From assembly GCA_963728205.1 (NCBI GenBank), contig CAVSIV010000005.1, positions 1-18,255 of the forward strand: a DNA stretch of 18,255 bases. The letters run 5' to 3'. Shown one piece after another: positions 126 to 15,638 of this stretch. The notes under the pieces are model-generated. The model made no database searches. It had not been told where the DNA came from and worked only from the letters and a program-made list of their open reading frames with translations. The stretch is from an uncultured Chloroflexia bacterium. GTDB lineage: Bacteria > Chloroflexota > Dehalococcoidia > UBA2979. Every line of letters begins with the position of its first letter. Within the stretch, counting starts at the first letter, position 1. The translations under genes were made by a program, and so were the position numbers.

Positions 126-1079
126 ATGGCACCCAGACGCCCCCGCGCGACCGTCGATTCGCCGCCGAGCGCTCCCGATCTCGCGGTGCTGGCACAGAGT
201 TTCCGGCTCTCGCTGCTCGCCGCGAACCGCGCCCCCCGCACCGTCGAGACCTACATGGAGGCGCTGGGGCTGTTCGAGCGGTTCCTCCAGTGGCACCGGC
301 ATGCCGCGCCGCGTCGGCGCAATCCACCGCGAGCGCGTTCGAGGCCTCGATCGCGAGCCTCCTCGAGCGCTGGAAGCCCGCGACCGCGCAGGAGAGCCGC
401 TTCAAGAGCATCGAGCAGTTCTTCAAGTGGTGCGTCGACGAGGGGGAGCTTCGGGACCGAGCCGATGCGGAATATGTCGCCCCCGAAGGTCCCGGAGAAG
501 CCGCCCGACGTCCTGACCGAGGAGGACAGCGGCGGCTGGTGCACGCCCTCAAGGGACCGACTTCGAGGCGCGCCGCGACATGGCCATCGTCCGCCTGTTC
601 ATCGACACCGGGATGCGGCGCGCGGACCTCGCCGGGCTGGCGCGTCGAGCGACCTCGACCTGGAACAGGCCGTCCAGGCGTACGTCATGGGCAAGGGCCG
701 CCGCGGGCGCGCCTGTCCCTTCGGACGACGCACGGCACAGGCGCTGAATCGGTACTCTCCGCGCGCGGCGCGCGCACCGCGATGCCGGGGACGAGGCGCT
801 CTCGGCTGGGCCTCGCCGGACCAATGACCCGCTGGGGGATCGTCGACGCGGTCTCGCGCCGCTGGGAGTGCGCCTGCCTCGGGCGCGTCAACGTCCATCG
901 CTTCCGGCACTCGTTCGCACACGAGCTGGCTCACGTCCGGCGGCAACGAAGGCGACCCTTCCGATGCGACTGGCGGGCTGGCAATCCCGCACGATGCTGC
1001 AGCGCTACGGAGCGAGCGCGGCCCCGATGAGCGCGCCCGCGAGGCCCACCGTCGCCTCAGCCCCGGCGATCGCATCTGA
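126..1079 (+). CDS. Tyrosine recombinase/integrase (frameshifted in this sequence)
   Basis: Rebuilt across frames: N-terminal SFRLSLLAANRAPRTVETY, then RRDMAIVRLFIDTGMRR, VMGKGRRGR, HRFRHSFAH, LMRLAGWQSRTMLQRYG (catalytic R, K, HxxR, W, Y; Tyr codon at 1006-1008). Ends HRRLSPGDRI-TGA (1077-1079). Confidence 0.93.
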
Positions 1080-1082
1080 GCA

Positions 1083-1482
1083 TCAGGAGCTGCGCGGCGG
1101 GCGACGGGGCGACGCCAACCGCAGCATCCTGCCGGCATCAGCATGCACGCGCAGCGCACCGACGAGTGCGAAACCCGCGGGGATGAGCGCGACGTCCCCC
1201 GTTCCGCCGGCGTCGTTGGCGCGCCCTTCGGCGGCTCGCAGCGCGAGGCGCGCGAAGTGTGCGCTGCGCGCCGCCTCGGCGCCGGCGCCGCCACTCGGGC
1301 GAGAACCCGAGCGAGACCGGGGCGTCCGGATCGACGTCGCGCTCGAACTTCGACAGGAACGCCGCCCGCGCGGACGCCGTCGTCTCGCGCGGATCGCGCT
1401 GGGCGTGCAGCGACCAGGCGACAACGCGGGCGCGCAATGAGCGGAGAAGGTCGTCCTCCTCGGCGCCGCGACCGCCCGTCAT
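1083..1482 (-). CDS. Small basic conserved hypothetical protein of mobile elements (frameshift near 1310-1325)
   Basis: RSLRARVVAWSLHAQRDPRETTASARAAFLSKFERDVDPD...RRRRAEAARSAHFARLALRAA resembles, from recall, a family seen next to integrases in actinobacterial elements and phages. Its ATG overlaps the toxin stop (ATGA, 1479-1482). The 3' end is uncertain. Confidence 0.7.
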
Positions 1483-1893
1483 GCGAACCAGTCCTCCACG
1501 GCGAGTCCGTGCACCGGCTCGAAGCGGCGTAGCGCGCGCGTCACCACGACGAGGCCGCGCGCGAGCGCGATCGCCGGAGCTGCGCTTCCGCCTGCCCCAG
1601 CGACGCCTCGCCTCGTCCCGGCGCGGCCACGCAGCTCCGCGTATTCCCGCGCGGCGTCACATCGAACGGCAACACCGTGAGGTTGCCAACCAGCGCTCGG
1701 TGGAGGCGCTCGACCCGGTCGGATGCGACAGCGCGCCGCGCTGACGCGCACCAGCGAGCAGCTGCCGCGACCGCGACTGCTCGATGTCGCTATCGCGTCC
1801 GGCGGCGTAGCCGCGATGCGCCGGAGCAGGCAGAACATTGGGAGCCGCGCGCAGGAGTTCGGCCAGCATGTCGGCCTCGAAGAGGTACTTCAT
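1479..1893 (-). CDS. vapC: PIN-domain (VapC-type) toxin (frameshifted)
   Basis: N-terminus MKYLFEADMLAELLRAAPN, then IATSS, VLPFD..AAREYAELR and C-terminal ARGLVVVTRALRRFEPVHGLAVEDWFA*. About 135 codons, directly downstream of the antitoxin with an ATGA overlap at 1890-1893. Confidence 0.85.
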
Positions 1894-2190
1894 GGCGCGA
1901 CCTCCGGGCCGCCGCCGCAGCGCCGGCCGCCCCTCCACCGCTCCGAGCAGTGCGTCGATCTCCGTCGTCGCGCGCGTCGAGCCACAGCGCTACGAGCGCC
2001 AGCGGTCCTGCCGGCCGCGCTCGGAGGGCGTGCCCAACTCGATGCATTCGAGGTCTGCACGGCGACGATTGCTGCAACGGCGTGCCCGTGCCGTGGAGAC
2101 GAGGTAGCGTTCGCGGCGGTGCGCGACGCCTTCAATCACCGCCGAGAAGTTGGCCTTGGCTTCTGCCGTCGTGATGCGTGTTGCGGTCAT
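1890..2190 (-). CDS. Phd/YefM-family antitoxin (frameshifted)
   Basis: MTATRITTAEAKANFSAVIEGVAHRRERYLV.RHGHAVAAIVAV is the typical Phd/YefM N-terminal pattern. RBS GAGAGGA upstream of the ATG at 2190. Confidence 0.88.
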
Positions 2191-2242
2191 GGTGTCCTCT
2201 CAGAGCCAATAGGTCGGGGCGGGCAACCGGTCAGGGTGACCG
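2184..2242. promoter_or_regulatory. Putative antitoxin operator pair and internal TA promoter
   Basis: Perfect palindrome CGGTCA-GGG-TGACCG (2228-2242) and a degenerate copy CGGTCA-TGG-TGTCCT (2184-2198) over the antitoxin RBS and start. Weak minus-strand CTGACC-N17-TATTGG (2234 to 2206). Confidence 0.5.
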
Positions 2243-3985
2243 AGACGGGTCCGCGCGTCGTCCTCCGCGGTCCGCCAGATTGGTCCGAGGAGACCACCGC
2301 CGTTTGCGGGGGTCCGCGCGACGATCGCCAGTCGTTCGTGAGCAGCAGCGGACGCTCCGGCACGCCCGCGGCCGCCTGCTTCACCCGTCGCTCCGCGCGG
2401 TCGTCCGCGCACACGAAGAGCACCAGGGCTCGCGCTCGAAGTCGGCCGCCAGGCGCGGCCTCGAGTAGCGCCGGTACCCTCGAACTTCGCTGCGAAGTCG
2501 CCCCCGTCGAGCGTGCCCGCGGTCGTACTCGAGCAGGAACGGGACGGGTGCATCACCGAGGCGCAGCAGGCCCGCCCCGTCGGGCCGGATGAACCATCCC
2601 CGTCCGTCGCGCGGAAGCGCCGAGTCGAGGCGGCCTCGCTCCGCCACTCGACCAGGCACCCACCCGGCACGCCGCGCGTCGCACGCCAGCCGCACGAACG
2701 TCCGGTTCACGCCGCGCGTGTGCGCGCCGTGCCGGCAACGCCACCTGCCGATCGCGTCGCCGCCGGCGCCACGCCGCCGAGCGCGCGAAACGCGCCGGCG
2801 GGACGACCGCGCCGCGCCGCGAGCCCGCAGCCCGCACTCGCCCAGCAGATAGGCCGGCGCGCCCGTGTCGACCGCGCGGGCGACGCGCTCACCGCGCCGC
2901 ACCGCACGAGCCACGCGAGCCGCCGCGTCGAGCGCCTCGGGCGGCGCGTCCGCGTCAGCGACCGCGAGCTCCTGCGCGGTCAGCAGCGGGTGGTAGGCGA
3001 CCCACTCGACCAGCCGCTTCTCGACGGCGCTCGGTTGCGATCGAGAGCCCGGCGGTGCGCTCGCCCGGCGAGCCGCACCTCGCCCGCCGCGGCGTACGGC
3101 GCCCACGCGCGCAGCGTCCCGTCGCTGCAGCACCGGAGCGGCGCGATCCTCGTGGAGCGGCAGCGAGGGCGCGGGACGGCCGTCGCTCGCCCCACGCGAG
3201 CGCCGGGTGAGGCGTTGCCACCGCTCGCTGCCCGGGGCGCGCCACGCAGTCGCCGGCGGGCCCTCGCGCAGCGCATCCACGCGGTCGGGAGGAGGGCGGG
3301 CACCGCGCGTCGCGCTCGCCGGCATCCAGCAGCGCCCGCTCCCACGGTCGAGTTCCCGTTCGCCGGCGGCGACGACCAGGATGGCAGCCCTCGGCGCCCC
3401 ACCGTCGGACGCCAGGCCGCGGCCCAGCGCGCCACCCGCGCGCGGCGGTGGGCGTCGGGCGCGGCGGCCCGATCCCACGCCACGAAGAAGGGCGCCCACG
3501 ATCCCGGCGCCCAGGCAGCCGTAGCCCTCCACGCCGGGCGGCCACCAGCGCGTCCGCGGCGGGCGCCGGCCAGCGGCAGCGAGCGTACGTCGACGAGCTC
3601 AGCGATCCCGGCATCGCGAGCGGCCGCCGCGAGGTCGCGAGCAGGCGGTTGACGCCGGCGGTCGTCTCCATGCGCGCGGCGCGGTCGAGCACGTCCGCCG
3701 TCGCACGGGCAGGCCCGCGCCAGCTCGGTCCCCGGCAGCCCGATCGCCGCGGCGAGCGCCGGCACCGCCTACTCGCGCAGGTAGGCGAAGCGCCGCTGGT
3801 CGAGCCCCGGCAGCCCGGCACGATCCAGTCGACCCAGCCACGGCGCTCGAGCTCGTGACGGAGCGCCCGCGCGTCCTGCTCATGGACGCCGAGGAGCGCG
3901 CGAGCTCGCGCTCGCCGAGCAGCGGCAGCCGCGCAGATCCAGTCGAGCGCCGGCCCGAGCAGCGCGGTCGATCGGCTGCCCTCAT
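2200..3985 (-). CDS. Replication-relaxation (Replic_Relax, MOB_C-like PD-(D/E)XK) relaxase with a tandem domain duplication (frameshifted)
   Basis: The C-terminal unit has HTRGVNR, WFIRPDGAG, PFLLEYDRGT, FAAKFEGY and VLFVC. The N-terminal unit has parallel but degenerate motifs. The ATG at 3985 overlaps the upstream stop; ends PTYWL-TGA at 2200. Confidence 0.82.
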
Positions 3986-6549
3986 GGCGTCGCTCCGTTC
4001 CCGCGCATCGGCGGGGTCGCGCTCGTCCAGTCCGCGTCGCCCGCCGTGCGGTGACTGTCACCTGTCCCCGCCGGTCTGCCGCCGCGGCTCGGCTGGCTCT
4101 GGTCGGGCCGCGGCCCCTTCGAGGCTGCGGCCGTGCGGGTCCCCGTTCGGGTCGACACGCGCTCGCGCAGCGCCGCGTCGATCTCCGCGCGACGACCTCG
4201 GCTCGCGGCCGGCCGTAGCGCGCGGCCGAGCGCTCCGCGAACGCCCGCACCGTGGTCGGGTCCGCGCGCGGCGGCGCGGTCGACGCGAAGCGTGAACACC
4301 GGCCGGGCGCCGGCCGTCCGTCCCACCACCGCGCGTAGCACTTGAAGTCGTCGAGTCGAGACGAGGTCCTCGATCTCGAGCGTCGCTCGCCGAGCTCCGG
4401 CACGCAGGCGACGCGCGTCCTCCGCGCTCACCTGGAAGACCGTCAGGCCGTCGGTGTTCGAGAGGATCGTCGGGGCGAGGTTGCGGTCGATCGCGTCGAG
4501 CTTCGCGAGCGACTGCGTGACCAGCACGAACGACGCGCCGTACTTGCCGAGCTCGGAGAGCATGCGCGGGTAGTCGACGGCGCCGAGCGTGCTCGACTCG
4601 TCGACGAGCGCCACGACGCGGCGGCGCTGCGCCGGCGGGCAGCGCGACCTGCTCCTCGACGAGCAGCCCCAGCAGGTTCAGGAGGGTCGCGCCGACGAGC
4701 GACGCGGCACCTCGCCCAGCGTCGCCGACCGCGCTGTTCACGACGAGGACGCCGCCCTCGCGCAGGAGCGCGCGCGGATCGAAGGTCGAGCGCGCCTGCC
4801 CGAACACGAGGCGCGAGGCCTCGGTCGACGTGAAGCGGCCGATCTTCGAGGTCACGGGATTCGCGGTCTGCTGCTGCAGCACCCGCCCCGCGCGGTCGTA
4901 GTTGTCGCGCCACCAGGCGGCGAGCGCGGGGTCGTTGACCTGGGCCAGCACGCGCTCGCGGAAGCGCTCGTCGGTGAGCAGCGGAGCAACGTCGAGCAGC
5001 GTGTACTGCTCTTCGCGCGGCGGCGCTGCGCGTTGGCGTCGAGCAGGCAGGCGAGCGACGGCGCGCAGCGCGCCCTCCATGCGCGGACCCCAGTTCGCCG
5101 GCCACAGGCGGTTGAGCATCGTCACGATGTGCTCGATCGTGCGGTCGCGGTCGGGGAAGAGCGCGCCGTCGAGCAGGTTGAGGCCGAGCGGCGTCGACGC
5201 GTCGGCGAAGTTGAGGTACGATCACGCGGTCCTGCAGCGCCTGGGGCACCGAGGCGAGCACCGCCTCGTGCGAGGTCCTGGTGCGGATCGATCACCGCGA
5301 GCGCCGCGTGGTCGAGGCCGGCGGCGACGCGCTCCATGACGCCGGCCGCGATGTGCCGCAGCAGCGTGGACTTGCCGCGGCGCGTCTTCGCGACGATCAG
5401 CTGGTTGCGGTGCAGCAGGCGTCGCCGGCAGGAACACGGCGCTGCCGCGGCCGCCGCGGCCGACGCGCACGCCGCCTGCCCGCGTGGCCCGGCGGCGGGG
5501 CCAGGTCGCGCGCCCGCGGTCCGTGCGGCACGCCGCGGCACCGCCTCGCCGCCCGTCGGCAGGTGCCAGAGCGGCCCGGCCTCGGCCAGCGTTGAGCAGC
5601 AGCGGGCCCGGGTCGCCCACCGCTCGAAGCCATCGTCGCCAGCCGCCCGGGACGCAGCTCCGCCCCGGCGTCGTCCGCGAACACGCCGGAGGCGTCCGCG
5701 ACCGCTTCGCGCGAGCATCGCGCAGGCGCCGCTCGGCGAGTCCGCCGGCCCGAACGCCGCAGATCTCGAGCGAGGCGCGCAGCAGCGGCGACGCGAGCTT
5801 GCGTTCCACGAGCGCGCCGACGGAGCGGCTCGCGCCCGCGGCAGCAGCCGGAACACCAGCGCGCCGAGCGAGCGGCAGCCCCACGAACACGCCGACGCCG
5901 GCGAGGGCGAGCTGCAGCATAGTCCCCGGCGCGGTACCAGCGCGACGCCTGGAGTCCGCCGGCGATCAGCACCAGCAGCGAGGACGATCGGGGGCCGAGG
6001 CCGCGAGCCCCGCGGTCCGCGGCTCGTCGCGCGTGCGCGCGGGCCGCGGTCCTGCGCCGCGCGCGCACCTTCGCCGCGCCCGATGCGGGGCGGCCGGGCG
6101 CCGTCCAGCCGGATCACGACGCGCTCGCCCGTCGCGCGAGCGGTCGCGCGCCGCGCACGCCGGCGAGCGGATCGCGCTCGCGGTCCCAGTCCGCCGCGCA
6201 GCGGCAGCGTCCGCGTCGCCGCCGCAGTCGCAGTCACCTGGCACGCGCTCTCGGGCCCATGCGCCGCGCCGGATCGAGGTCCGGGCGGCTCGCCGCCGAC
6301 CGGCTCCGGTCGACGCCCGGGTGGGTCGCCGCCAAGCCCGCCGCGCGCGCGGTCCAGCGCTCCTCGGTCGCGGCGCGGACGTACCAGCGCGGCCCCGCCC
6401 GGGTGACGACGCGTGTCGAGTGTCATGCCGCGCCGGTCCACGGCGCCGAACATCGCCCGCGCGGCGGCGCATCCCGTCGTCGAGGCATGCGCGGCGGGCA
6501 CGATCTCCGCCAGGCGCGCGGCCGCCTGCGATCACTGTGATCGTCGCAT
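3982..6549 (-). CDS. virD4: VirD4/TraG-like type IV coupling protein (heavily frameshifted)
   Basis: Two hydrophobic segments (~5850-5990), Walker A LIVAKTRRGKST (~5368-5400), VIDPHQDL, NWGPRMEGALR, Walker B ALVDESS, ELGKYGASFVLVTQSL, ILSNTDGLTVFQVSAEDA. GGAGGT RBS before the ATG at 6549. Both termini are approximate. Confidence 0.85.
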
Positions 6550-6561
6550 CGCGACCTCCCG

Positions 6562-7559
6562 TCACGCCTCGCAGTTGCTGGAAGAAGGCCTCGCGCCCGT
6601 CCGGGCGCTGGCCGAGCTCGCCGACGTCCTTGACCCCGGCCGGGAGCGCGAGGACGGTCGCGCGGTCGCCCAGGTCCGCGGCGAGGTCGTGCGCCGCCGT
6701 CGCGCCCGGCGTCGTCGGCGTCGAGCACGAGCACGACCGAGCGGGCACGGGCGAGCAGGCGCGCCACGGTCTGGCCGGGGTGCGAGCCGAGCAGCGCGCA
6801 GGCCGGAAGCCCCCAGCCGACGAGCGTCAGCCAGTCGAACGGGCCTTCCGTCACGAAGATCCGCGCGCGGTCGGCCACGAGCTGCCATCCCAGCAGCGGG
6901 CGTGGGAGCGCGACGGCGCGGTAGCGCGGCTCGCGACCGTCGAGGGACGCGCCCGACCATCCAGACACAGCGGCCCGCGCGCAGCTCCGGCACGACGATG
7001 CGTCCGGCCATCGCCTCGCGCTCGCCGCGGTCGAGCAGGCCCAGCTCCCGCGCCCGGGCGACGCTCAGCCGCCTGCGCTTGAGGTAGGCGGCGAGCACCG
7101 TCCCGTCCGAGTAGCCGAGCCGGAAGCGGCGGGCGACCGGGCGCGAGAACGCCGCGGCGCTCGAGGTAGGCGAGCGCCTCCGGGGCCTGCTCGAGCGCCT
7201 CCTGGTAGAGCTCGCAGGCGGCGGCCAGGATCACGCGGTCGTCGAGCGGTCAGCGCGCGCTGTGCGGGGCGGTCGCTCACCGGCGCGGGCGCCGGCCGCA
7301 GGCCGTCGAGCCGGGTGAGCGCCTGCTTGAAGTCGAGGCCCTCGGCGCGCCGCAGGAAGTCGATCACGTCCCCGCCCGCGCCGCAGCCGAAGCAGAAGTA
7401 GCTCTGCGTCGCCGGGTAGACGACGAGGCTCGGCCTGCCGTCGTTGTGGAAGGGGCAGCGCCCCGTGAGGCGCCGGCCGTGCGGACGCAGCCGCACTCCG
7501 TGCGAGCCGATCACCTGCGCGATCGGGTTGCGGCGCTTGAGCGCGTCGAGGTCGGTCAT
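6562..7559 (-). CDS. DnaG-like primase: CHC2 zinc finger plus Toprim domain (frameshifted)
   Basis: CPFHNDGRPSL...YFCFGCGAGGDVIDF zinc finger; YLERRG, RLGYS, GRIVVP; Toprim VTEGPFDWL and LVLDADDAG; KDVGEL. About 330 codons. The ATG overlaps the VirB4 stop (7556-7559). Confidence 0.92.
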
Positions 7560-9390
7560 GGCTGCACCTCCTCGGGATCCGGGATGGCTTCGGGATTGCC
7601 GTGCAGGTCCTCCGGGCTGGTGGTGCTCACTGCGTGCTCCCGGGCGCTGGCGACAACGGACAGCGCGACGTGATTGCCACGCGCGAGGAAGAGGCCCTCG
7701 CCCTTGCGGCACGAGACGAGGAAGGCGCGCTCGGCGGGCGAGAGACCGAACGTCTCCGCGACGAGTCCCGCCGACGAGGCGTCCTGGCGCATCAGCAGCT
7801 GCACGGAGCTGTTCGCGAGGACGGTGTGGCCCTCGGGCGAGCGCAGGAAGTCCTCGACGTCCTGCGTCACGGTCGTGAGCCCGAGCCAGCGCTTGCGGGC
7901 CCGCCGCGCGACCTGCGCGAGGAAGTGCGCGCCCTCCGGGTAGCGCATGAGCGACCAGGCCTCGTCGATGAGGAGCATCCGCGGCCGCGGGTCCGTGCGC
8001 GCCTGCCGCCAGACGTGATCCGCGATCAGGTAGGTGGCGAGCGGGCGCAGCTCCTCCTCGAGGTCGCGCACGTTGAAGACGGTGAAGGGGCGGTCGAGGG
8101 CGACGGTCGTGCGCTCCGAGAAGACCCGGCCGAGGCTGCCGTCGACGTAGCGCTCGAGGCGATCGCCGAGGGCGTGCGGGTCGTCGCCGGCGCGCAACAC
8201 GCCGAGCAGGTCGCGCAGCACCGGAGCGGCGCGGTCGTGCGTGGCCGGGTCCGCCGTGATCCCAGCCGCCGCGTAGGTGCGATAGAGCGCGGCGTCGAGC
8301 GCGCCTCGCTCGGCGCGGCCAAGCGCCTGCCCCGGCTCGGCCAGCATCAGCGCGAGGAGGCCGTGCAGCGCGAGCACGCGCTCCGCGAGCGCGTCCCCTT
8401 CGCCCGCATCCCCGTCGGAGGCCGGAGCGAGGTCGAAGGGGTTTACGTGATGGGGCGAGGTGCCGGAGAGGCGCACCATCTGCCCGCCGACGGCGTCGCA
8501 GATCCGGCGGTACTCGTCCTCGGGATCGACGACCACGTAGTCGATCCCGAGCAGCAGCGCGCGCAGCGCCTCGACCTTGCAGGCGTAGGACTTGCCGGCG
8601 CCGCTCTTCGCGAAGACGACCTTGTTCGCGTTGTCCTCGGTCGCGGCGAACGGGTCGAAGATCGACGAGCCCGCCGCCCTGGAGGTTGCGACCGTAGAGG
8701 AGACCGCGGCCCGTCCCGAGGTCGCCGGAGGTGAACGGGATCATCGTCGCGGCGCTCGAGGTGTCGAGGTTGCGGCGCCGGCGCAGGTGATCCTGCGCGG
8801 CGGGGAGGCACGAGAGCAGGCCCGGCAGCATCTCGTAGAGGGCGGGCGCCCACCGTCGCCATCGCCCCGCCCAGCTCCGCCTCGACGAAGCGCTGAGCCC
8901 GATCGAGTTCGGCCTCCGTCCGCCCGTGGAGGCGCAGGTAGAGGGCCGTCGAGAAGACGCGCTCGTCCCCGCGCTCGATCGCGTCGCGCAGCCGCTCGAC
9001 GTCCGCGTAGGCGACCTCGCGCTCGGACGACGCGATGCGGCCGCCCTTCGCGTCGAACATGCGCGACGACTGCAGCTCGACGAGGCGGCGCGTGAGCCAG
9101 CGCACGACCTCGCGCGAGTCGAGCGGCTCCAGGTGGAGGCTCAGGTCCAGCGGCTCGCCGGGATCGCCCAGTCGTCCGAGCCAGTTCGGGTGGACGTGCC
9201 GCGGGTACTCCGTGAGGGCCAGCACTCGCGTGCGCTGCCCGTCGACGAGCAGCTCCGCGCGACGCTCCTCGATCGCCATCGGGGCGACGAGATCGACGGC
9301 GGCGCGCCGGCCCGCTGCGAGCGTCTCGGCTGCCTGCCGCGAGGCGCGCGGGACACGCCGCGATCGGAGGGGGAGTGAGTTACGCGCCAC
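7556..9390 (-). CDS. virB4: VirB4-like conjugative ATPase (frameshifts near 8660 and 8840)
   Basis: EYPRHVHPNWL, RNLDTSSAATMIPFTS, DPF..EDNANKVVFAKSGAGKSY (Walker A ~8588-8611), VVVDPEDEY, INPFD-like VNPFD, Walker B LLIDEAW, RRARKRWLGLTTVTQDVEDF. RBS GGAGGAGGT before the GTG at 9390. Confidence 0.93.
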
Positions 9391-10040
9391 GGCGCACCTC
9401 CTCCCGGCTCGTCGCAGACCCGGATGGCCGGGCGCTCCCGGCGATCACGTCGCGCCAGAGCACGAGCAGCTCGTCGCCCGCAAGACGACGGGCGTGCAGC
9501 CCGAGTGCGGCGAGCGCCTGGGTGAGCTCCTCGCAGCGCAGCGCCAGCGTGCGGGCGGCCATCTCGTCGGAGGCTCGACGTGCGCGCGCGTGGCTCCTCA
9601 GCAGGGCGCGCACTCCCGGTTGCGCGCTCGGCGCCGGGACGTCCGCCGTGACGACGACGAAGAACCGCCGCTCGAGCGGGGTGCGCTCGCGCGCGAGACG
9701 CCGCACGAACGAGGCGTGGTCGCGCGCGAGGCGCATCGCCGGCCTCGCCCAGGCGCGCGTCCCGCGCACCCTCGAGCCCCGCGAGGTAGCGCTCGACGTC
9801 GGTCGGCGCGACCCGCACGAGGACCTGGATCGGGTAGGTCAGGCCGTTGAGGAGGCGGCGGTAGCCGGCGAGGATCGCCTCCTGCTCGACCTCGGAGCGC
9901 AGCGCGAAGTTGATCGCGCCCGTCTCCAGGACGGCGCGGCAGGATCCGTCGCGCAGCCGCACGACGTCGCCGGCGATCTCGTCGAGCGGGAGCAGCGCCT
10001 GCACGCTGCCGAGCCGCCGTCGCTCACGCTTCGAGCGCAT
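9380..10040 (-). CDS. TraC-like / VirB4-associated conjugal transfer protein (frameshift near 9745)
   Basis: SVQALLPLDEIAGDVVRLRDGSCRAVLETGAINFALRSEVEQEAILAGYRRLLNGLTYPIQVLVR...LERRFFVVV...ALGLHARRL..ELLVLW, the pattern of the protein usually found between PrgI and VirB4 in such systems. RBS AAGGAGAGG. Confidence 0.78.
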
Positions 10041-10411
10041 CAGCCTCTCCTTCCGAGCACCGCGGTGCCGCGCGTCGCGGGCAGCACGACCTCGTGACGC
10101 GGGCGCCCGTCGCTGCGACAGATCGAGCGGGCGCCACACGCTCACGCGTGGCGCCGCGGCGTACCGCAGCAGCACAAATGCCCACACCTCGGCCGGCCGC
10201 CCGGCGGGCCGCAGCAGCGCCAGCAGCACGCCGGCGATGAGCACGCCGGCGGCCACGACGAGCCGCAGCGCGAAGGGACCGGGGACGCTCGCTGACGGCG
10301 CCGTAGGCGAGCGCGAGGCTCGCGGCGAGCGTGAGCAGCTGGCCGACCGTGAGGCCGTAGAAGGCGCGGTCCGCCACGTCGAGGTGGGTCGGGATCTCGT
10401 GGCGGCCGCAT
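10040..10411 (-). CDS. prgI: PrgI-family (VirB3-like) membrane protein (frameshifted)
   Basis: HEIPTHLDVADRAFYGLTVGQLLTLA, a second hydrophobic stretch AGVLIAGVLLALLRPAGRPAEVWAFVLLRY..APRVSVWR, and a TGATG overlap with the next gene. Confidence 0.85.
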
Positions 10412-10413
10412 CG

Positions 10414-10649
10414 CTAGGTCCCCATCGCGTTCTGGACGAGCCCCGCGATCACGCGGGCGAGCAGCACGATCGCGAACCCGATCAGGGCGTTGACGATCGC
10501 GCTCTTGCCCGCCTCCAGTCTGGCGCGGCGATCCCGCCGAGGCCATGTAGAGGAAGGCTCCCCACATCACGAAGAAGGCCGACACCGCCGCGCCCACCCC
10601 GATCCCGATCTGGAGCAGGTTGGCGAAGAGCGTGTTGATCTGTGTCCAC
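10414..10649 (-). CDS. T4SS pilin (TrbC/VirB2-like, two transmembrane helices; frameshifted)
   Basis: QINTLFANLLQIGIGVGAAVSAFFVMWGAFLYMASAGSPRQ.EAGKSAIVNALIGFAIVLLARVIAGLVQNAMGT*. About 78 codons. RBS GGAGGA before the GTG at 10649. Confidence 0.85.
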
Positions 10650-10663
10650 CGAGTCCTCCGCTG

Positions 10664-11179
10664 CTACTGCCCGGCCACGAGGCCGGGTGATCCCGGTCGA
10701 TGAGCTCGAAGCCGGTCACGAGCCAGCGCCCGTGCAGGCGCTCGAGCACCAGCCGCAACTGCTGTCGGATGTCCTGCTCGTGCCATGCGCCGGACGCGAG
10801 CCAGCGGCGGTGCTGCGTCGCGACGGCGACCGCCGTCGCGACGTCGGCACGGTGCGAGTCGAGCGAGAACGCTTCGATGTCCGTTCGAATGGACCGCTGC
10901 TCGTCGAGCGGCTCCGGCGTCGAGTCGCGCGTCGGCGATCGCGCGACTGCAGCTCTCCGCCGGCGAGGCCGCGGCCAGCGCGGTGGAGGTAGTCGTCGGC
11001 GTTTGCCGCGTCGAAGGTGCCGGCCGCGACCACGAAGTCGCGCGCGGCCGCGGCCGCAGAGTCGTCGGAGGAGGCGTGGAGCCCGGCCGCGCCGCGCGCC
11101 ACGCCGACCACCCCGACGCGAGGGCGGCGAGCGCGGCGAGCGCGCAGGAGGCCGGCGCCCGCCGGCGCGTGCCGATCAC
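10664..11179 (-). CDS. Membrane-anchored NTF2-like protein, probable VirB8/TcpC functional equivalent (frameshifted)
   Basis: N-terminal hydrophobic ALAALAALASGWSAW, then AARDFVVAAGTFDAANADDYL, ATAVAVATQHRR and LRLVLERLHGRWLVTGFELI (an NTF2-type terminal beta-hairpin). Sits inside the tra operon. The fold and role are inferred. Confidence 0.6.
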   Translation of the reverse strand: MIGTRRRAPASCALAALAALASGWSAWRAARPGSTPPPTTLRPRPRATSWSRPAPSTRQTPTTTSTALAAASPAESCSRAIADARLDAGAARRAAVHSNGHRSVLARLAPCRRRDGGRRRDAAPPLARVRRMARAGHPTAVAAGARAPARALARDRLRAHRPGSPGLVAGQ

Positions 11180-11735
11180 GACGCCACCGCCTCGGATGCC
11201 GACCGGCGTCCCGGCGGGCCCGAGCGTCGCGTAGGCCGCGGCGCGCGCGAGCACGATCGCGACGTAGGACCACGAGTGGTTGTAGGCGTAGACCGCGCGG
11301 GCGACGTCGGTAGCCGCGCCGGCCGCGGCGAGGTACCGCGCCATCGCTGGGATCGCGTCGTGGAAGTCGTAGGGGTCGCCGGCGCCGTAGGCCGCCCAGG
11401 TCTCCGGCAGGAACTGCCCGTAGCCGACGGCGCCGGCGCTCGACGTCGCCATGTTGCGGCCGAAGTCGCTCTCGACCGACGCGACCGCCGCGAGGAGCGA
11501 CCAGGGGACGCCGCTCGCCTGCCCCGCGGCGATCATCACCGGGCGCTGGTCACTCGGAATCGCGCGCAGTTGCGAGCCGCCCCCGCGCGGAGCCGCGCAG
11601 AAGCGTCGCGGCGAGCGCGGTCGCGGCCGCGCACGACGACGAGTGCCGGCAGCACGAGGAGCGCGACGATCGCCCCGACGAGCCGCAGGCCCTCGCGCTG
11701 GATGAGCAGCGTGGCGGCAGTGCGGGGGCGCTCAT
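11176..11735 (-). CDS. Membrane-anchored lytic transglycosylase (SLT/VirB1-like; frameshifted)
   Basis: TM LVGAIVALLVLPALVVV; GVPWSLLAAVASVESDFG (catalytic Glu), SSAGAVGYGQFLPETW, ARYL, AVYAYNHSWSYV. ATGA overlap at 11732-11735 and GTGA overlap at 11176-11179. Confidence 0.9.
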
Positions 11736-12386
11736 GGCGTCGCGCTCCCCGCGCCGCCGCAACGGCCCGCCGCCGCGCCGCCGCCCAGCGCGCCCACCGC
11801 ACGCCCGACGACGACCAGCGACACGACCGTGGCGAGCCCGGCGTGATGCGGTCCGCCGTGCAGCACCGCCGGGATCTTGAGGGTGAGCCAGCAGACCGCG
11901 ATCCCGAGGAAGAGCGTGAGCAGTCGTCGGCACCTGCCGAGTGCGGTGCAGCTCTACCATGAGCAGCGTGCCGAGGCGCAGCGCGAGCATCTGCACGGCC
12001 TGCTGGAAGACGGTGATCGGGAAGAGGTGCGCCCACCAGCGCGTCCAGCCCTGCGTCTGCGGGATCGCCCAGAGCACCGCGACGACAGGGGCGCGAGCGC
12101 GATCAGGACGTCGACGAGCGCAAGGCGCATCAGCATCTGGAACGCGAGCAGCAGCGCCACGACGGCGTACGCGACCCCGACCAGCACGTGCGCGATCCCG
12201 TTCGCGGGCGCACCCGCCTGGGCGTAACCGGGTAGCGTCGACGCCCCGATCGCGCCGGTAAGGGCGTTGTTGAGCGTCGATGAGCACGCGCGCGAACTCG
12301 AGCGTGAGGTTGGCGGCGAGCGCCGCGATCGCGATGCGCGGCAGCAGCTCCATCGCGCCGTCGTAGGGACTGCGCGTGTGCTGCTC
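11732..12386 (-). CDS. VirB6/TrbL-like polytopic conjugation membrane protein, 5' part missing
   Basis: EQHTRSPYDGAMELLPRIAIAALAANLTLEFARVLID.NNALT...LLLAFQMLMRLALVDVLIALAP.VAVLWAIPQTQGWTRWWAHLFPITVFQQAVQMLALRLG...LFLGIAVCWLTLKIP. Several TM helices. It begins abruptly at the junction with the hydratase gene. Confidence 0.78.
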
Positions 12387-13069
12387 ACCCGCTCCGCGTA
12401 GCGGTACGACTCGTCGATCTGGAGATGGCGCCATTGATGCGTGACGGCCTTCGTGCCTTCCACGGAGAGCGGCGCATTGTCGGCGATCATCTCCGCGATC
12501 TCCACCGCCCGCGGCATGAGCTGCTTCGGCTCAAGCACCTCGTGCACCAGACCGCAGCGCAGCGCCTGTTCCGGCGAGACGCGATCGCCGGTGAGCAGGA
12601 TGTACATCGCCTCGCCGAACGGGATCACGCGCGCGAGGTGGTGGACCGCGTAGCCGGCGAGGATGCCGCGCTTCACCTCGAACAGGCCGAAGTATGCCTC
12701 GCTTGAGCAGATGCGGATATCGCAATCCAGCGCCCGCTCGAGGCCGCCGGCGAGGCACAGCCCGTTGATCGCCGCGATGAACGGTTTGGGGTTCCGCGAG
12801 AACTGGAGCGTCGTCCCGCCGATCGTGCGCGTCGTCCGCTGGCTACCGCGTGCGTTCCGCGCCGCCATCTCCTTGAGGTCTGCCCCGGCGCTGAAGGCGC
12901 GACCCTCGCCCGTCACGATGCCCGCGCGCATGGCGGGATCCGCGGTGAAGTCCGCGAGCGCCGCGGTCAGTTCCTGCTGCATCGTCCCGCCGAGCGCGTT
13001 CAGGCGCTCGGGACGGTTCATGCGGAATACCGCGTAGCGCTCGCGCTTCTCGTAGACCAGGTCACTCAC
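12387..13069 (-). CDS. Enoyl-CoA hydratase/isomerase (crotonase family), 3' end missing
   Basis: MNRPERLNAL, GRAFSAGADLKE, KPFIAAINGLCLAGGLE..LDCDIRI, FGLFEVKRGI, IADNAPLSV. Both catalytic Glu positions are present. Similarity stops at YRYAERV, without the usual SED..EG..AF.EKR tail. RBS AAAGGAG. Confidence 0.93.
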
Positions 13070-13164
13070 GGTTCGCCCGCTCCTTTCGTCCGCGGGTACT
13101 TGCGCTTCGCGGGCCCACGCCCTGATCCGCTATCTCCATGGCTGCCGCTGGAACGGCATCGCAG

Positions 13165-14365
13165 CTACCCGAATATCCGCGACATTGCGAGCGTGGCGAT
13201 CTCCTCGCTGTCGAAGCCGTGCTCGAGCAGCACCTCGTGTGTGTGTCCTCCGAGATCTGGTGCGGGCCGGCGCGGGCCGACCTCCGAACCCGGCATGCGG
13301 AACGGCACGGCAAGCGTCGAGAACCGTGAACCGTCCGGACGCTCGAGCTCAGCGAAGCGCTCCGCCGCCTCCGCCTGAGGATCGTCGAGCACCTCTGGGA
13401 GCTCGACGATGGGCTCCCAAATCAACCCGGCTCCATCGAAACGGGTCGCCCAGTCTGCACGCGGACACGTCGCCAGCTCGGCATCGATCGCCGCGGTGAG
13501 CGCCTCGGTGTGCTCACGGCGGGCGGCCAGCGAGGCGTAGCAGGGGTCGTGCTCCCATTCCTGGTGCCCGACCCCCCGGCAGAACCCGGGCCAGTACCGA
13601 TCCGACTGCGGCATCACGAGCGCCAGCCAGCGGCCGTCACCGCAGCGGTAGGTGTTGGCGAGCGGGTTGGCCGGCCTTCGGCGGTCCCGAAACTCCGGCT
13701 GGCGCCGCGTGAAGAGCGTTCGCGAATAGTCGCTGCCGATGGTCCACATGCCCGCGGCGAACAGGCTGGCGTCGACGACGCCCCCACGCCCGGTGCGATC
13801 GCGCTCGTGGAGCGCAGCGAGCACCGCGCTGAGGAGCGCGAGTCCCGCCGTGTGATCGCCCTCCCCTCCCCGGAACATGCCGGGCGGGCAGTCGGGTTGG
13901 CCCACGATGCCCATGATCCCCGTGCGTGCCCAGAACGCCGCGTTGTCGAAGCCGGCGCGCTCGCGATCGGGGCCCTCGAGGCCATAGGCCGTCATTGACG
14001 CATGCACCGTCGCCGGCGCCTCGGCGTGGACGGCCGCAGCCGTCAACTCGTAGCGTTCCTGCCGGGCGGCCGTGAGATTGGTAATGAAGACGTCGACGCC
14101 CCGGCAAAGGCGCCGGACGAGCGCGGGGCCTTCCCACTGCTCGAGGTCGACGATCACCGAGCGCTTCCCACGATTATCGAGTTCGAACACCGAGCCTCCA
14201 CCGACCGCCCGGCGCCGGCCCTCCCGACGCGCGCCAGGCGTCCCCGGCCGGCGGCTCGAGCTTTACGACATCAGCGCCGAGGTCGGCCATGATCGCGCCG
14301 GCGCTGGGGGCGGCGACCCAGGTCGCCAGCTCCAGCACGCGGACGTCCTCGAGTGGTCCGGGCAT
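13165..14365 (-). CDS. Family III CoA-transferase (CaiB/BaiF), frameshift near 14190-14230
   Basis: MPGPLEDVRVLELATWVAAPSAGAIMADLGADVVKLEPPAGD, FELDNRGKRS, DVFITN, AYG..GPDRERAGFD (catalytic Asp present), RDRTGRGGVVDASL, APDLGGHTHEVL. Confidence 0.95.
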
Positions 14366-14397: not shown

Positions 14398-15574
14398 TCA
14401 ATCGCCCGACGGCGGGCGGTCGGCCAGCATTCGCGCGAACGCGATGCTTCCGCTCGCGAACGCCGCAACCTGGGGGACGTCGACGCTCGACGGGTACCGA
14501 ATCCTCCCGCATGTGGAACAGCGCGTTGTCGTTCGTCAGCGCGGCGTATCGGCGGCCACCGCGTCGATGCACGATCGCCATCTCGCCGCCGCCGCCACTG
14601 CTCTCGCGAGCATCGCGCACTACCAGCCGCGTCTCGCGCGTTCCTGCGCCCTGGAGGGCGCGCTGGAACGCCTCCCCGAGCCGCACGTCCGAGGCCGCGA
14701 TGTTCCCCTGCGTCGCCGCCGCCGCGCCGATGTTCGCCCCGAAGTGCAGCCACGTGGCGTCGGTCGCGAGCGTGGGGCGGGCGGCGAGCAGGACCTCGAG
14801 GCCGTAGAACCCGAGCTCGTGGCCCGTGTTCGCCGCGAAGATCACGGTGGACGCCGGCCGATGCGCGATGAACGCGCGCATCACCTCGAGCCAGCAGGCG
14901 ATCCCGCCGCCGCGCTCGGAAGCCACCTCCCACCAGCCGCTGCGGGGCGTGTTCACGGCGAGCGTGCGTGCCGGGTCGGTGCCGGGGAGGGTCGCGAGGA
15001 CGTTGAAGGTGTCCGACGACACGCGCTCCGCGTGGATCACCGCGCGCACGGTCGCTCCGCGTCGGGCGGCCTCGCGCAGCCGCGGACCGTGCTCGCTCTC
15101 AACCTGCATGACCGGCGGGCCGAAGGGCGCGGTGAAGTGAGGCGCGTTGAGCAGGGCCAGGCCCGGGGTGCGCCCCTCGGTGACGACGACGAGCGCCCGC
15201 TCGGGCCCCGTCCGGCGCGCCTCCAGCAGCGCCGTCGGCTCGCCGTTCGGCGGGCTCGCCGCCAGGCCGATCACGCCGCCGTGGCCGGCCTCGCGCAGGT
15301 CCCCCACGATGCCGTCGCGTCCCGTGTACGAGCAGTCGAACAGCGGCACTCCGTCGATGCGCTCGCCGTCGACCTCCATCCAGCACGCGCGCGGCTCCAC
15401 GCGGTCGAGGTGGACCGGGACGAGTTCCGGCTCGAGGCCGAGCCCGCGGACCTCCTCCGCGAGCCACTCCCCCGACCGCCGATCGACGTCGGTGCCGGTG
15501 CGATGGTGGCCCTGCGCGTCATACTCCTCGATCAGCTTCGAGATGCGCCGAGTGAGCGCAACCGTGCTCGCCAT
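14398..15574 (-). CDS. Divergent M28 peptidase-fold (Zn-exopeptidase-like) protein, frameshift near 14500
   Basis: HRTGT..D..SGEWL, NVLATLPG, VNTPRSGWW..ASERGGGIACWLE, FAANTGHELG..G, WLHFGANIG, LFHMRED-RYPSSVDV...ADRPPSGD-TGA (14398). RBS GGGGAGGG before the ATG at 15574. Confidence 0.7.
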
Positions 15575-15638
15575 GAACCACCGTCCCTCCCCGCAGACCC
15601 CGTGTCGGTCGACACCGTCGCCGGAGCCCTGCAGAGTG

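Follow-up and report, generated by a model that had tools for sequence, protein, structure and literature searches.

Does the pilin-bearing, monoderm-type transfer locus of a Chloroflexota contig belong to an ICE family that falls outside the standard MPF classes, as the original prediction proposed? The window, by which is meant the whole 18,255-bp contig of this Chloroflexota host, carries the element genes at 126-12386. The element is quite probably an error-ridden and incomplete member of a large, largely undescribed ICE family with a conserved pilin-bearing module. Judged in silico, this family appears abundant, yet of known T4SS and relaxase classes. No published description of such a Chloroflexota family turned up in the literature searched, which agrees with its having been called poorly described.

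Genes of the element

The eleven predicted genes were all recovered within 126-12386, each at or near its predicted position, by Pfam scan and orthologue mapping; the integrase lies on the plus strand and the ten remaining genes on the minus strand. The scan took 160 ORFs, delimited stop to stop and 70 aa or longer, and its window matches were all on the minus strand. Since frameshifts break up the genes in the window, the evidence for several components comes from intact orthologues; pilin, PrgI, TrsD-like, VirB8-like and VirB6-like genes were located by mapping orthologues from Chloroflexota MAGs onto the window.

126..1079, plus: tyrosine recombinase (integrase), XerC/D-like, about 8 frame pieces, transcribed towards the transfer genes (convergent)
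1993..2199, minus: possible Phd/YefM-like antitoxin (PhdYeFM_antitox E 0.077, under the Pfam cutoff)
2251..3977, minus: Replic_Relax/MOB_C-type relaxase, ~600 aa in relatives, HTH-type matches preceding the nuclease domain
3985..6513, minus: VirD4-type coupling protein (T4CP), ~850 aa in relatives, TraG-D_C and TrwB_AAD_bind matches
6572..7607, minus: DnaG-type primase (CHC2 zinc ribbon and Toprim), its start overlapping the VirB4 end
7559..9378, minus: VirB4 ATPase, ~600-630 aa form, P-loop_TraG/AAA_10
9395..10040, minus: TrsD-like protein, a free-standing VirB4-N-terminal-like domain (the predicted "TraC-like" gene)
10014..10410, minus: PrgI (VirB3-like) membrane protein (window piece, PrgI E 0.027)
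10420..10642, minus: VirB2-like pilin (T4SS_pilin), two pieces covering PF18895 positions 4-42 and 45-71
10702..11131, minus: VirB8-like bitopic protein, TM helix and NTF2-like domain as predicted by an orthologue structure model
11198..11786, minus: SLT lytic transglycosylase (VirB1-like), SLT E 2.6e-9 on 11204-11560 (ORF 10667-11731)
11768..12386, minus: TrbL_4/VirB6-like, 5'-truncated, from tblastn and frameshift-aware alignment
12386..12389, no strand: breakpoint, end of homology to the element family, cutting the VirB6-like gene and an enoyl-CoA hydratase gene

The module order is VirB6-like (TrbL_4), SLT hydrolase, VirB8-like, VirB2-like pilin, PrgI/VirB3, TrsD-like, VirB4, DnaG-type primase, VirD4-type T4CP and MOB_C relaxase, then a site-specific recombinase by a tRNA gene. 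At the recombinase end, Phage_int_SAM_4 matches window positions 171-335 (Pfam E 0.011), and 336-755 aligns to the integrase of the intact locus L004 (E 1.4e-7; best reversed-sequence control 0.064), which itself matches Phage_integrase at E 6e-34 (Pfam). Frameshift-aware alignment extends over 336-1076 with 84/233 identical residues and 7 shifts. A tRNA gene adjoins each of the four tyrosine integrases (those of L004, L007, L012 and L058), three of these loci lying on contigs of 58-632 kb. For example, two tRNA-Gly genes about 13.4 kb apart bracket the whole module in L004; no att sites or repeats could be defined in the window, and none were found in L004. The antitoxin candidate retrieved nothing relevant from PDB (phmmer), and a candidate PIN-like partner at ~1560-1990 was spotted by eye only.

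The relaxase aligns with residues 10-611 of the 615 of its L004 counterpart (246/562 identical, 17 frameshifts), and PF13814 matches the window ORF 2384-3598 at E 5e-13 (49.9 bits, cutoff 25.3; relatives score 83-85 bits). Likewise, the T4CP, with its Pfam domains at 3985-4677, covers residues 12-852 of 852 in L004 (435/826 identical, 18 frameshifts). The primase ORF 6426-7553 carries Zn_ribbon_DnaG (E 1.6e-22) and Toprim_2 (E 2.7e-6) by Pfam and aligns with 26-376 of the 392 residues of the L012 primase, with 4 frameshifts. The VirB4 gene matches P-loop_TraG/AAA_10 at 7559-8740 (Pfam E 2e-19) and shares 453/601 residues with P0246 across 2 frameshifts.

The TrsD-like product probably has a VirB4-NTD-like fold: its predicted structure (pLDDT 84.5) found R388 TrwK/VirB4 chains as all of its top 10 PDB matches (E 3.6e-3 to 3.3e-2). 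TraC_F_IV matches the gene weakly (E 0.0018-0.0033), and an orthologue matches TrsD NF041427 at E 3.5e-5, under the cutoff. PrgI matches its L004 counterpart at 72/129 residues (1 frameshift), and its orthologues reach 35 bits against PF12666 (cutoff 27). Singly, the window pilin pieces score 16.1 and 21.7 bits, under the T4SS_pilin cutoff of 26.6; orthologous pilins with 58/74 identical residues score 41-43 bits, and the L002 pilin 43.4. The product of 10702..11131 would have a VirB8-like fold, judging from an orthologue model (pLDDT 93.7) with top Foldseek matches to 7o41 chains (R388 inner-membrane complex/arches), TcpC 3ub1 and PrgL 7aed (E 6.5e-5 to 3e-4); the window aligns with 20-165 of its 176 residues, with 3 frameshifts. 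The SLT hydrolase is without an NlpC/P60 domain, as it is in L002, with which it shares 102/194 residues (3 frameshifts). The VirB6-like gene retains template residues 186-392 of 396, the first ~185 codons being missing, and its orthologues match TrbL_4 PF19597 at E 6e-14 to 2e-11.

Frameshifts, breakpoint and host

Frameshift-aware alignment counts 60 frameshifts across the 11 element genes, none of which is spared. The same aligner gives 0 shifts in 8 of 11 intact-DNA controls, with a range of 0-4 per gene; for example, the T4CP has none on intact L002 and L012 DNA. The original prediction had treated the frameshifts as errors to correct, and for the flank this is borne out by P0123, from another assembly with 99% identity in a flanking gene, which reads through the window shift at ~14195 but is itself shifted at ~13420, a point at which the window follows the 400-aa homologues. 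Because this near-identical assembly is in frame where the window is shifted, and shifted itself elsewhere, the frameshifts are most likely assembly indels. The comparison covers a flanking gene only, and within the element itself assembly indel error is, by inference, the most likely explanation.

A genuinely decayed ICE remnant, in which the frameshifts and the VirB6-like truncation are real mutations and nothing is functional, is an unlikely alternative. It would account for the excess of shifts over the controls and the ~185 missing codons, and also for a density of shifts in the element (60 over ~10.7 kb) several-fold above that of the one flanking gene measured alike, a CoA-transferase gene with 1 in 1.2 kb, a difference which could mean real decay. 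Nor was an intact near-identical copy found, as a search for VirB4 at least 80% identical in another assembly returned none. However, housekeeping genes in the flank are frameshifted too, one gene is shifted differently in two 99%-identical assemblies, and possible in-frame stops alongside the 60 shifts number only 2. In-frame identity equals that of intact pairs (T4CP 435/826 here against 438/815 for L004 and L002), and the highest G+C (0.79-0.80) coincides with the shift-dense T4CP and relaxase, which fits poor consensus quality. The integrase is equally shift-dense, yet in ~0.71 G+C, unlike these two genes.

The homology ends abruptly. At the nucleotide level, 5 of the 8 Chloroflexota-type loci match the window up to 12385-12389 and none beyond this point, where an enoyl-CoA hydratase (ECH) gene running from 13069 down to ~12387 is cut about 30 codons short; its best match to PDB crotonases, with chains of ~260 aa, covers query residues 2-224. 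As the VirB6 end is lost here, the copy as sequenced is incomplete, and the truncation together with the lack of att repeats leaves integration and completeness of the window copy putative. Such a breakpoint could arise if the assembler had joined an ICE or plasmid fragment to the chromosomal fragment (ECH, CoA-transferases) of another population, leaving host and integration unestablished. This is improbable: the assembly is error-prone and the sister assembly has the flank gene with no VirB4 found from it, but a real deletion would look the same, G+C is alike on either side (0.70-0.80), the relatives are chromosomal and adjoin tRNA genes, and element and flank each independently indicate Chloroflexota/Dehalococcoidia. 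The nearest named relatives of the flanking CoA-transferase are Dehalococcoidia and Chloroflexi MAGs (52-63% identity), and the 8 closest genomic VirB4 loci are in Dehalococcoidia or Chloroflexota MAGs, except for one labelled Proteobacteria. Both agree with the predicted Chloroflexota host of the error-ridden element.

Class of the transfer machinery

The best NCBIfam model for VirB4 is conju_CD1110, which represents a VirB4 family of monoderms, and an intact orthologue scores 334.3 bits against its 325-bit cutoff. In the VirB4 tree, the Chloroflexota-type clade (99/96, UFBoot/SH-aLRT) joins the Patescibacteria-type clade (100/98) at 95/88, and both join Streptomyces/Embleya at 94/91. Under the AU test this branching order is not settled: a grouping of the Chloroflexota clade with Streptomyces/Embleya in place of Patescibacteria is unrejected (p 0.29). 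Rooted on diderm TraC, the clade nests amid monoderm and archaeal references, and its Patescibacteria sister is placed within MPF_FATA in PMC12102498 (section 12). The mating-pair machinery thus appears, from sequence, to be a deep branch of monoderm (MPF_FATA-type) T4SSs next to the Patescibacteria and Streptomyces/Embleya clades, and the suggestion of a system beyond the standard classes does not hold.

The same applies to the relaxase, which had been singled out as non-HUH. PF13814 (Replic_Relax) is the MOB_C class (PMC5357655, Table 1), described in PMC12857230 as PD-(D/E)XK-like with a wHTH at the N-terminus, and the window relaxase appears to belong to this established class; no NCBIfam model matched the ~600-aa protein. 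As predicted, Pfam scans of the window ORFs and of the scanned ORFs of intact relatives' modules gave no match for an HUH relaxase, VirB7, VirB9 or VirB10.

Among the best 80 VirB4 loci, 8 are Chloroflexota-type and 72 Patescibacteria-type, and TrsD-like orthologues are present in 69. The Chloroflexota-type loci keep the gene order of the window: VirB4 with primase and the T4CP occur in 8/8 and Replic_Relax in 6/8, the two others being on contigs that stop before that point; four loci have a tyrosine integrase and one has a serine recombinase. By analogy with known families, the element would be excised by the tyrosine recombinase, and its oriT bound and nicked by the PD-(D/E)XK-type MOB_C relaxase. 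The T4CP would then pass the DNA to a monoderm-type channel of VirB4/TrsD, PrgI, VirB6-like and VirB8-like proteins, while SLT may open the cell wall, the VirB2-like pilin may make a pilus or conduit, and the primase would prime the complementary strand.

A non-conjugative T4SS for cell-cell interaction or uptake, Patescibacteria-like and without DNA transfer, is highly improbable. VirB4, TrsD-like, PrgI and pilin are indeed common to the Patescibacteria system, which is mostly without a relaxase and thought repurposed, as far as PMC12102498 describes it. However, the Chloroflexota-type loci conserve T4CP, MOB_C relaxase, primase and recombinase together and side by side, whereas these are missing from the 72 Patescibacteria-type loci, barring one weak T4CP and one weak serine-recombinase match, and tRNA genes adjoin the intact relatives.

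Comparison with known systems

Known MOB_C systems (pAD1 TraX, CloDF13 MobC, streptococcal IME_Class_8) resemble the proposed ICE in PF13814, HTH-type matches ahead of it and a VirD4-type T4CP partner. The window relaxase family differs in its ~600 aa and its lack of an NCBIfam match, and the streptococcal IMEs in having serine integrases and no T4SS of their own. The MPF_FATA systems (pCF10 Prg/Pcf, pGO1 Trs, CD1110-family VirB4) share a VirB4 above the CD1110-family cutoff in an intact relative, PrgI, TrsD-type proteins, a VirB8-like NTF2 protein (PrgL/TcpC structure matches), a cell-wall hydrolase and the absence of VirB7/9/10. In contrast, the Chloroflexota element bears a VirB2-like pilin and a MOB_C relaxase (pCF10 PcfG is MOB_P; PMC12857230), its VirB4 is just 23-34% identical to Bacillota plasmid copies, and its host phylum is Chloroflexota.

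The pilin is less distinctive than supposed, as the 'plasmid' records of Streptomyces sp. BHT-5-2 and Embleya sp. (L090, L001), the next sister clade, with VirB4 43% identical, likewise have a T4SS_pilin upstream of VirB4. In Embleya the gene order matches: a pilin ORF (T4SS_pilin E 5e-20) is followed by a large membrane protein, PrgI, VirB4, T4CP and Replic_Relax. The Streptomyces record is unannotated, and of the genes preceding VirB4 there only the pilin ORF was seen (E 1e-19). These records differ as large linear replicons of Actinomycetota, and in Embleya the cell-wall hydrolase is NlpC/P60 and placed downstream, with primase and integrase both unannotated in the stretch.

The predicted kinship with Patescibacteria (CPR) T4SSs, of which the clade of Quinonero-Coronel et al. 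2025 (PMC12102498) and the Se T4SS of Wang et al. 2023, as cited in PMC12857230, are the comparison systems, is upheld. The VirB4 clades are adjacent and 40-49% identical, a TrsD-like gene lies immediately upstream of VirB4 in 61 of the 72 CPR-type loci, and PF18895 pilin, PrgI/VirB3 and VirB6-like fit the description in PMC12102498. In contrast, the window VirB4 lies outside the closed CPR clade, and CPR systems mostly are without a relaxase and detectable VirB8 in the account given there. The Chloroflexota elements have a T4CP, MOB_C relaxase, primase, VirB8-like protein, SLT and tRNA-adjoining recombinase, which makes them mobile elements as opposed to an organelle fixed in the chromosome.

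Gene content and reading frames of the element

The window is an entire contig with a G+C content of 68-80% over its 18,255 bp, and no tRNA genes or Rfam families were found in it; its own protein P0122 is recorded on a contig of just this length. Ordinary ORF lists being useless at such G+C, the Pfam scan took in every stop-to-stop ORF of 70 aa or longer (160 in all), and every match lies on the minus strand.

Pfam matches within the element
2384-3598, minus, Replic_Relax
3985-4677, minus, T4CP domains
6426-7553, minus, Toprim_2 and Zn_ribbon_DnaG
7559-8740, minus, P-loop_TraG/AAA_10
9383-9838, minus, TraC_F_IV (weak)
10667-11731, minus, SLT

With the proteins of relatives as templates, frameshift-aware protein-to-DNA alignment places all genes of the family on the window in the relatives' order, and the matches are near full-length. 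The relaxase, the T4CP and the VirB4-based mating-pair apparatus are all in the window, each of them frameshifted, and the components listed in the original prediction are present by the Pfam matches and the template mapping taken together.

Family genes mapped onto the window (identical residues; frameshifts)
12386-11768, minus, VirB6-like, template residues 186-392 of 396 only (140/205; 3)
11786-11198, minus, SLT (102/194; 3)
11131-10702, minus, VirB8-like (59/140; 3)
10642-10420, minus, pilin (58/74; 1)
10404-10014, minus, PrgI (72/129; 1)
10040-9395, minus, TrsD-like (112/213; 1)
9378-7562, minus, VirB4 (453/601; 2)
7607-6572, minus, primase (186/344; 4)
6513-3985, minus, T4CP (435/826; 18)
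3977-2251, minus, relaxase (246/562; 17)
336-1076, plus, integrase (84/233; 7)

Outside the element are found an enoyl-CoA hydratase (ECH), two family-III CoA-transferases and a beta-lactamase-family gene, and several genes, the metabolic ones included, are divided between frames. The beta-lactamase-family (PF00144) gene and the second CoA_transf_3 gene (15902-17800, minus) are each frame-split. Upstream of the first CoA-transferase, within the same stop-to-stop ORF, lies a stretch of ~500 codons (14400-15898, minus) with a very strong third-position G+C signal (0.87-0.96), whose sole Pfam match is a weak one to Peptidase_M28 (E 0.0014).

The frameshifts of the element total 60, of which 41 add a single base and 19 add two, and beside them there are only 2 possible in-frame stops. 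When the aligner was applied as a control to the DNA of intact relatives, 8 of 11 alignments had 0 shifts, and the remaining three, which are the lowest-identity pairs, had 1, 2 and 4. A CoA-transferase from a different assembly (P0123, on a 251,754-bp contig) is 99% identical to that of the window (13065-14365); it reads through the window's shift at ~14195 and leaves the frame at ~13420, where the window follows the frame of P0124 and P0125, homologues of 400 aa. As two near-identical assemblies differ in the position of the shift, the shifts in the CoA-transferase are indel errors, and both assemblies of this organism contain such errors. Because a second copy of the element was not found in the protein-database search with VirB4 (best 120 of 4,045 matches), it is only by inference that the same cause is extended to the element's own frameshifts. 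Real frameshifts in a truly decayed element would agree with their density, which is several-fold higher in the element; indel errors are supported by the near absence of in-frame stops, by an in-frame identity equal to that between intact relatives, and by the location of the shift-dense T4CP and relaxase in stretches of 79-80% G+C. At the 13 frameshift junctions inspected there are no long homopolymers, so the junctions give no clue to the sequencing platform.

The homology of the family stops at 12386-12389, within the conserved TrbL domain, and the match of ECH to solved crotonases, whose chains are of ~260 aa, is best over query residues 2-224. Since the TrbL homology and the crotonase match each end short, the VirB6-like gene and ECH are both cut, and they occupy different frames. 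The breakpoint is not an att site: it arose by deletion or by a join made in assembly. On the left the element runs to the contig end, ~125 bp ahead of the integrase start, and its other end is this truncating breakpoint.

Relatives, possible integration and extent of the family

The VirB4 ATPase domain (P0001; window 7559-8740, minus) is the cleanest piece of the element. Its best identity among plasmid records is 43% (Streptomyces and Embleya), and among named proteins of >690 aa in a large protein database it is 47-56% for Chloroflexi and Ktedonobacterales and 44-47% for Patescibacteria. Proteins of 216-690 aa gave 4,045 matches at E<=0.001 among 7,999 scored. The best 120 of these, the window's own fragment aside, are mostly of ~600 aa with 63-79% identity, and are named as Dehalococcoidia, Chloroflexi or Chloroflexota MAGs with the exception of one Planctomycetota MAG. 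An Actinomycetota origin, suspected from the 74% G+C, was rejected because VirB4 identity is only 43% there against up to 79% in Dehalococcoidia; a Chloroflexota host had been predicted correctly.

Of 600 candidate stretches from the GTDB representative genomes, 587 were confirmed, and the 80 best loci were retained. Eight are Chloroflexota-type (L002-L007, L012 and L058; 58-76% identity), seven of them titled Dehalococcoidia or Chloroflexota and one Proteobacteria, and the other 72 are Patescibacteria-type (40-49% identity). The gene order of the window recurs in the Chloroflexota-type loci, with nucleotide synteny over window ~2395-12389 at 64-76% identity, which ends at 12385-12389 in 5 of the 8 and goes further in none. 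By tblastn over the best 80 loci, the primase, Replic_Relax and tyrosine integrase are confined to these eight, and likewise the T4CP except for one weak match in L053; a ~230-aa protein is found in 69 of the 80, and 61 of these 69 are among the 72 loci of Patescibacteria type.

Gene content of the family, by Pfam, from the intact loci L004, L006, L007 and L012 and from L002 and L003, the closest two to the window
TrbL_4 (VirB6-like)
SLT, with or without NlpC/P60
172-178-aa protein, no strong Pfam match
T4SS_pilin, 38.6-43.4 bits (cutoff 26.6)
PrgI
222-231-aa protein, no Pfam match
VirB4
DnaG-type primase
T4CP, 852-919 aa
Replic_Relax protein, 595-615 aa
Recombinase: Phage_integrase in L007 and L012; convergent minus-strand Phage_integrase in L004 (E 6e-34); large serine recombinase in L003, after AbiEi/AbiEii

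Within the family there is exchange of the recombinase module and of defence or addiction cargo. In L003, AbiEi/AbiEii and the large serine recombinase replace the tyrosine integrase. In L012 (1065-8000) the VirB6-like, SLT, VirB8-like and pilin genes are inverted, and an insert with a nucleotidyltransferase and an AbiTii gene separates the inverted block from PrgI-VirB4. Many VirB4 proteins of Ktedonobacterales and Chloroflexi (P0013-P0036) are of 850-1190 aa with an extra domain, PF26593, and this long form is not present in the Dehalococcoidia-type elements. The closest VirB4 relative of >690 aa (P0002; 74% identity, 804 aa) holds VirB4 and Zn_ribbon_DnaG in one protein, the result either of a fusion of VirB4 with the primase or of reading through the overlapping genes.

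The recombinase that marks an ICE is present in the window as a fragmented tyrosine recombinase at 126-1076. Its N-terminal piece matches Phage_int_SAM_4 (E 0.011), and the integrase of L004 aligns to window 336-755 (E 1.4e-7; reversed control 0.064). Confirmation came only through this template: Pfam on the whole plus-strand ORFs gave no better than E 0.16, and neither tblastn against plasmids nor phmmer against the PDB gave a match. Between relaxase and integrase (1560-2199, minus) a candidate Phd-type antitoxin followed by a PIN-type toxin is seen by eye; a Pfam Phd match (E 0.077) is the sole support for this pair, and PDB searches gave no relevant match for it.

The recombinase of the relatives is of the tyrosine or serine type. 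Each of the four relatives that have a tyrosine integrase carries a tRNA gene (Gly, Lys, Met or Arg) just beyond it, and three of the four are on contigs of 58-632 kb. In L004 the complete module from VirB6-like to integrase (4887-18460) is flanked by tRNA-Gly(tcc) on one side and tRNA-Gly(ccc) on the other, at a distance of ~13.4 kb. Provided that these two genes mark its ends, the L004 element is exceptionally compact among ICEs of the T4SS type, and to our knowledge the ~13 kb would place these elements among the smallest. Direct-repeat searches in the window and in L004 gave only GC-rich imperfect repeats and no att repeats, and the exact ends are therefore undefined.

VirB4 phylogeny and class of the transfer system

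A maximum-likelihood VirB4 tree was built from 80 rows and 360 columns with diderm TraC as outgroup (supports as UFBoot/SH-aLRT). For this tree 47 of the 72 Patescibacteria-type loci were thinned out by hand, and 27 database proteins (6 named Chloroflexi or Ktedonobacterales) and a small set of 19 plasmid references were added. The Patescibacteria-type rows form a clade (100/98) with the window outside. Another clade (99/96) unites the window with the Chloroflexota-type loci, the Ktedonobacterales-labelled proteins and a plasmid copy from Chlorohelix, and the two clades join at 95/88. Streptomyces with Embleya is the next sister (94/91), the remaining references (Bacillota, Actinomycetota and archaea) branch outside these, and a quick tree of all 100 rows agrees. 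Strict sisterhood to Patescibacteria was set aside: the branch has 95/88, but with p 0.29 an AU test does not reject a placement of the Chloroflexota clade with Streptomyces/Embleya. Hence the robust statement from these alignments is a three-way clade of Chloroflexota-type, Patescibacteria-type and Streptomyces/Embleya VirB4.

In 22 MAG records titled Gammaproteobacteria, Pseudomonadales or Bdellovibrionales, VirB4 nests inside Patescibacteria subclades (L014, L025-L028, L030, L032, L034, L037-L039, L049, L052, L055, L057, L066, L068, L071, L073, L076-L078). The submitters' taxon labels on these records look wrong; one of the 22 records (L077) is a complete chromosome of 886 kb.

The intact VirB4 of L004 scores 334.3 bits on the NCBIfam model conju_CD1110 (cutoff 325), on which the fragment of the window scores 200.7 bits. 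Rooted on diderm TraC, the Chloroflexota-type clade nests among the monoderm and archaeal references (19 references), and this grouping with monoderm VirB4 points to MPF_FATA. According to PMC12102498, the Patescibacteria VirB4 clade is nested in MPF_FATA and reported without homologues of other origin, from a reference set of 262 plasmid and ICE VirB4s and 12 archaeal VirB4s, and Chloroflexota appears once, as the sister lineage. As the CD1110 score is above cutoff and the Patescibacteria clade is nested in MPF_FATA, the T4SS of the window appears to be a deep branch within the monoderm class, and a placement outside the standard MPF classes, first proposed as a possibility, is not supported.

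Likewise, the relaxase is not of an unusual kind, as had been supposed. The Replic_Relax (PF13814) ORF of the window scores 49.9 bits (cutoff 25.3) and its relatives 83-85 bits. PF13814 is the Pfam signature of the known class MOB_C (PMC5357655, Table 1), in which the window relaxase would fall by its profile. MOB_C relaxases are PD-(D/E)XK restriction-endonuclease-like enzymes, and their prototype, TraX of pAD1, has an N-terminal winged HTH and shows no covalently bound DNA intermediate (PMC12857230). MOB_C is the commonest type among the few relaxases of Patescibacteria (58/109; PMC12102498).

Two further proteins were placed through structure models. The family of the 176-aa protein is small: 59 out of 1.84 billion cluster representatives match at E<=0.001. 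The protein has no VirB8 profile match in Pfam or NCBIfam, where only CaMKII_AD (E 0.028) and Rv0361_Cterm (E 2.4e-4) match weakly. Its model (pLDDT 93.7) has a TM helix and an alpha+beta cone, that is, the N-terminal TM helix and NTF2-like domain of the VirB8 family. The top Foldseek matches in the PDB are VirB8-family T4SS proteins (E 6.5e-5 to 1.6e-3, TM about 0.4-0.5), and generic NTF2 folds rank in between. The VirB8-family matches include chains of the R388 inner-membrane-complex/arches models (7o41, 8rtd), with the R388 TrwG/VirB8 arches entries (8rta, 7q1v) at ranks 18 and 20, and further pCW3 TcpC, pCF10 PrgL, DotI, TraM, and Bartonella and Brucella VirB8. For the ~230-aa protein, NCBIfam gives weak matches to TrsD and to positions 1-67 of the CD1110 VirB4 model. 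The ten best PDB matches of its structure model (pLDDT 84.5) are without exception chains of R388 TrwK/VirB4 (E 3.6e-3 to 3.3e-2), and the next are unrelated folds (E 0.2). The model thus predicts a free-standing VirB4-N-terminal-like protein, as TrsD of the Patescibacteria T4SS has likewise been characterised (PMC12102498).

Pilin and kinship with Patescibacteria

Patescibacteria T4SSs have been called unique among monoderms for their potential pili (PMC12857230), and recent reviews regard VirB2-type pilins as theirs alone among monoderms. The pilin predicted in the window is borne out by the T4SS_pilin profile (PF18895), as the orthologues in the relatives exceed the cutoff; in the window two pieces, each below cutoff, together cover the whole profile. 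The pilin also weakly matches the NCBIfam Mycoplasma-ICE model 'pilin-like conjugal transfer protein'. When 42 membrane-like ORFs near VirB4 in five other monoderm records were surveyed, the T4SS_pilin match was strong in Embleya (71.7 bits) and Streptomyces (70.6 bits) and weak in Rubrobacter (17.5 bits), and none was found among such ORFs of Miltoncostaea or Chlorohelix. Pilin-bearing monoderm T4SS clusters hence occur also in Actinomycetota, and the T4SS pilin is not confined to the Chloroflexota-type family. Both strong ORFs lie upstream of VirB4 (Embleya, L001:6776-7441, E 5e-20; Streptomyces, L090:3845-4351, E 1e-19) and are missing from the gene tables consulted for these 'plasmid' records.

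The origin of the Patescibacteria T4SS and of its pilin has been explicitly left open (PMC12102498, PMC12857230). A tentative reading, on which we remain somewhat doubtful, is that the essential, relaxase-less T4SS of Patescibacteria and the ICE family of Chloroflexota and some Actinomycetota share a pilus-bearing conjugative ancestor. A VirB2-like pilin, TrsD, PrgI and VirB6 would already have been parts of this ancestral monoderm conjugation machine. Patescibacteria would have retained the machine and lost its linkage to the T4CP, the MOB_C relaxase, the primase and VirB8, and the ICE family would persist in circulation in Chloroflexota, the sister phylum, and in some Actinomycetota. If this is true, conjugative pili are a feature of an entire monoderm T4SS lineage and not a peculiarity of Patescibacteria. 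The family itself provides a predicted conjugative counterpart in a neighbouring phylum, with the same core genes and a full DNA-processing module. The question of the origin of the Patescibacteria T4SS and pilin becomes testable by phylogeny and synteny, and MOB_C is nominated as the 'missing' relaxase type. Chloroflexota is a phylum with few genetic tools, for which the family may offer a compact natural vector.

Searches of the literature on conjugative elements of Chloroflexota or Dehalococcoidia, ICE T4SS, VirB4 or PF18895 returned only PMC12102498 or unrelated work. The family merits description and the window copy is a poor representative of it: being truncated and of low quality, this copy contributes little more than a pointer to the family. 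The original observation is confirmed and its interpretation is right in part: the host and the Patescibacteria kinship hold, the latter through the joining of the VirB4 clades and a common TrsD/PrgI/VirB6/VirB2-like set, and the place outside known classes and the unusual relaxase do not. In comparison with the T4SS clade of Patescibacteria, the VirB4 of the window lies outside (its own clade at 99/96 against 100/98), and the TrsD, PrgI, VirB6 and VirB2-like genes found beside virB4 in that clade are found so in the Chloroflexota family as well.
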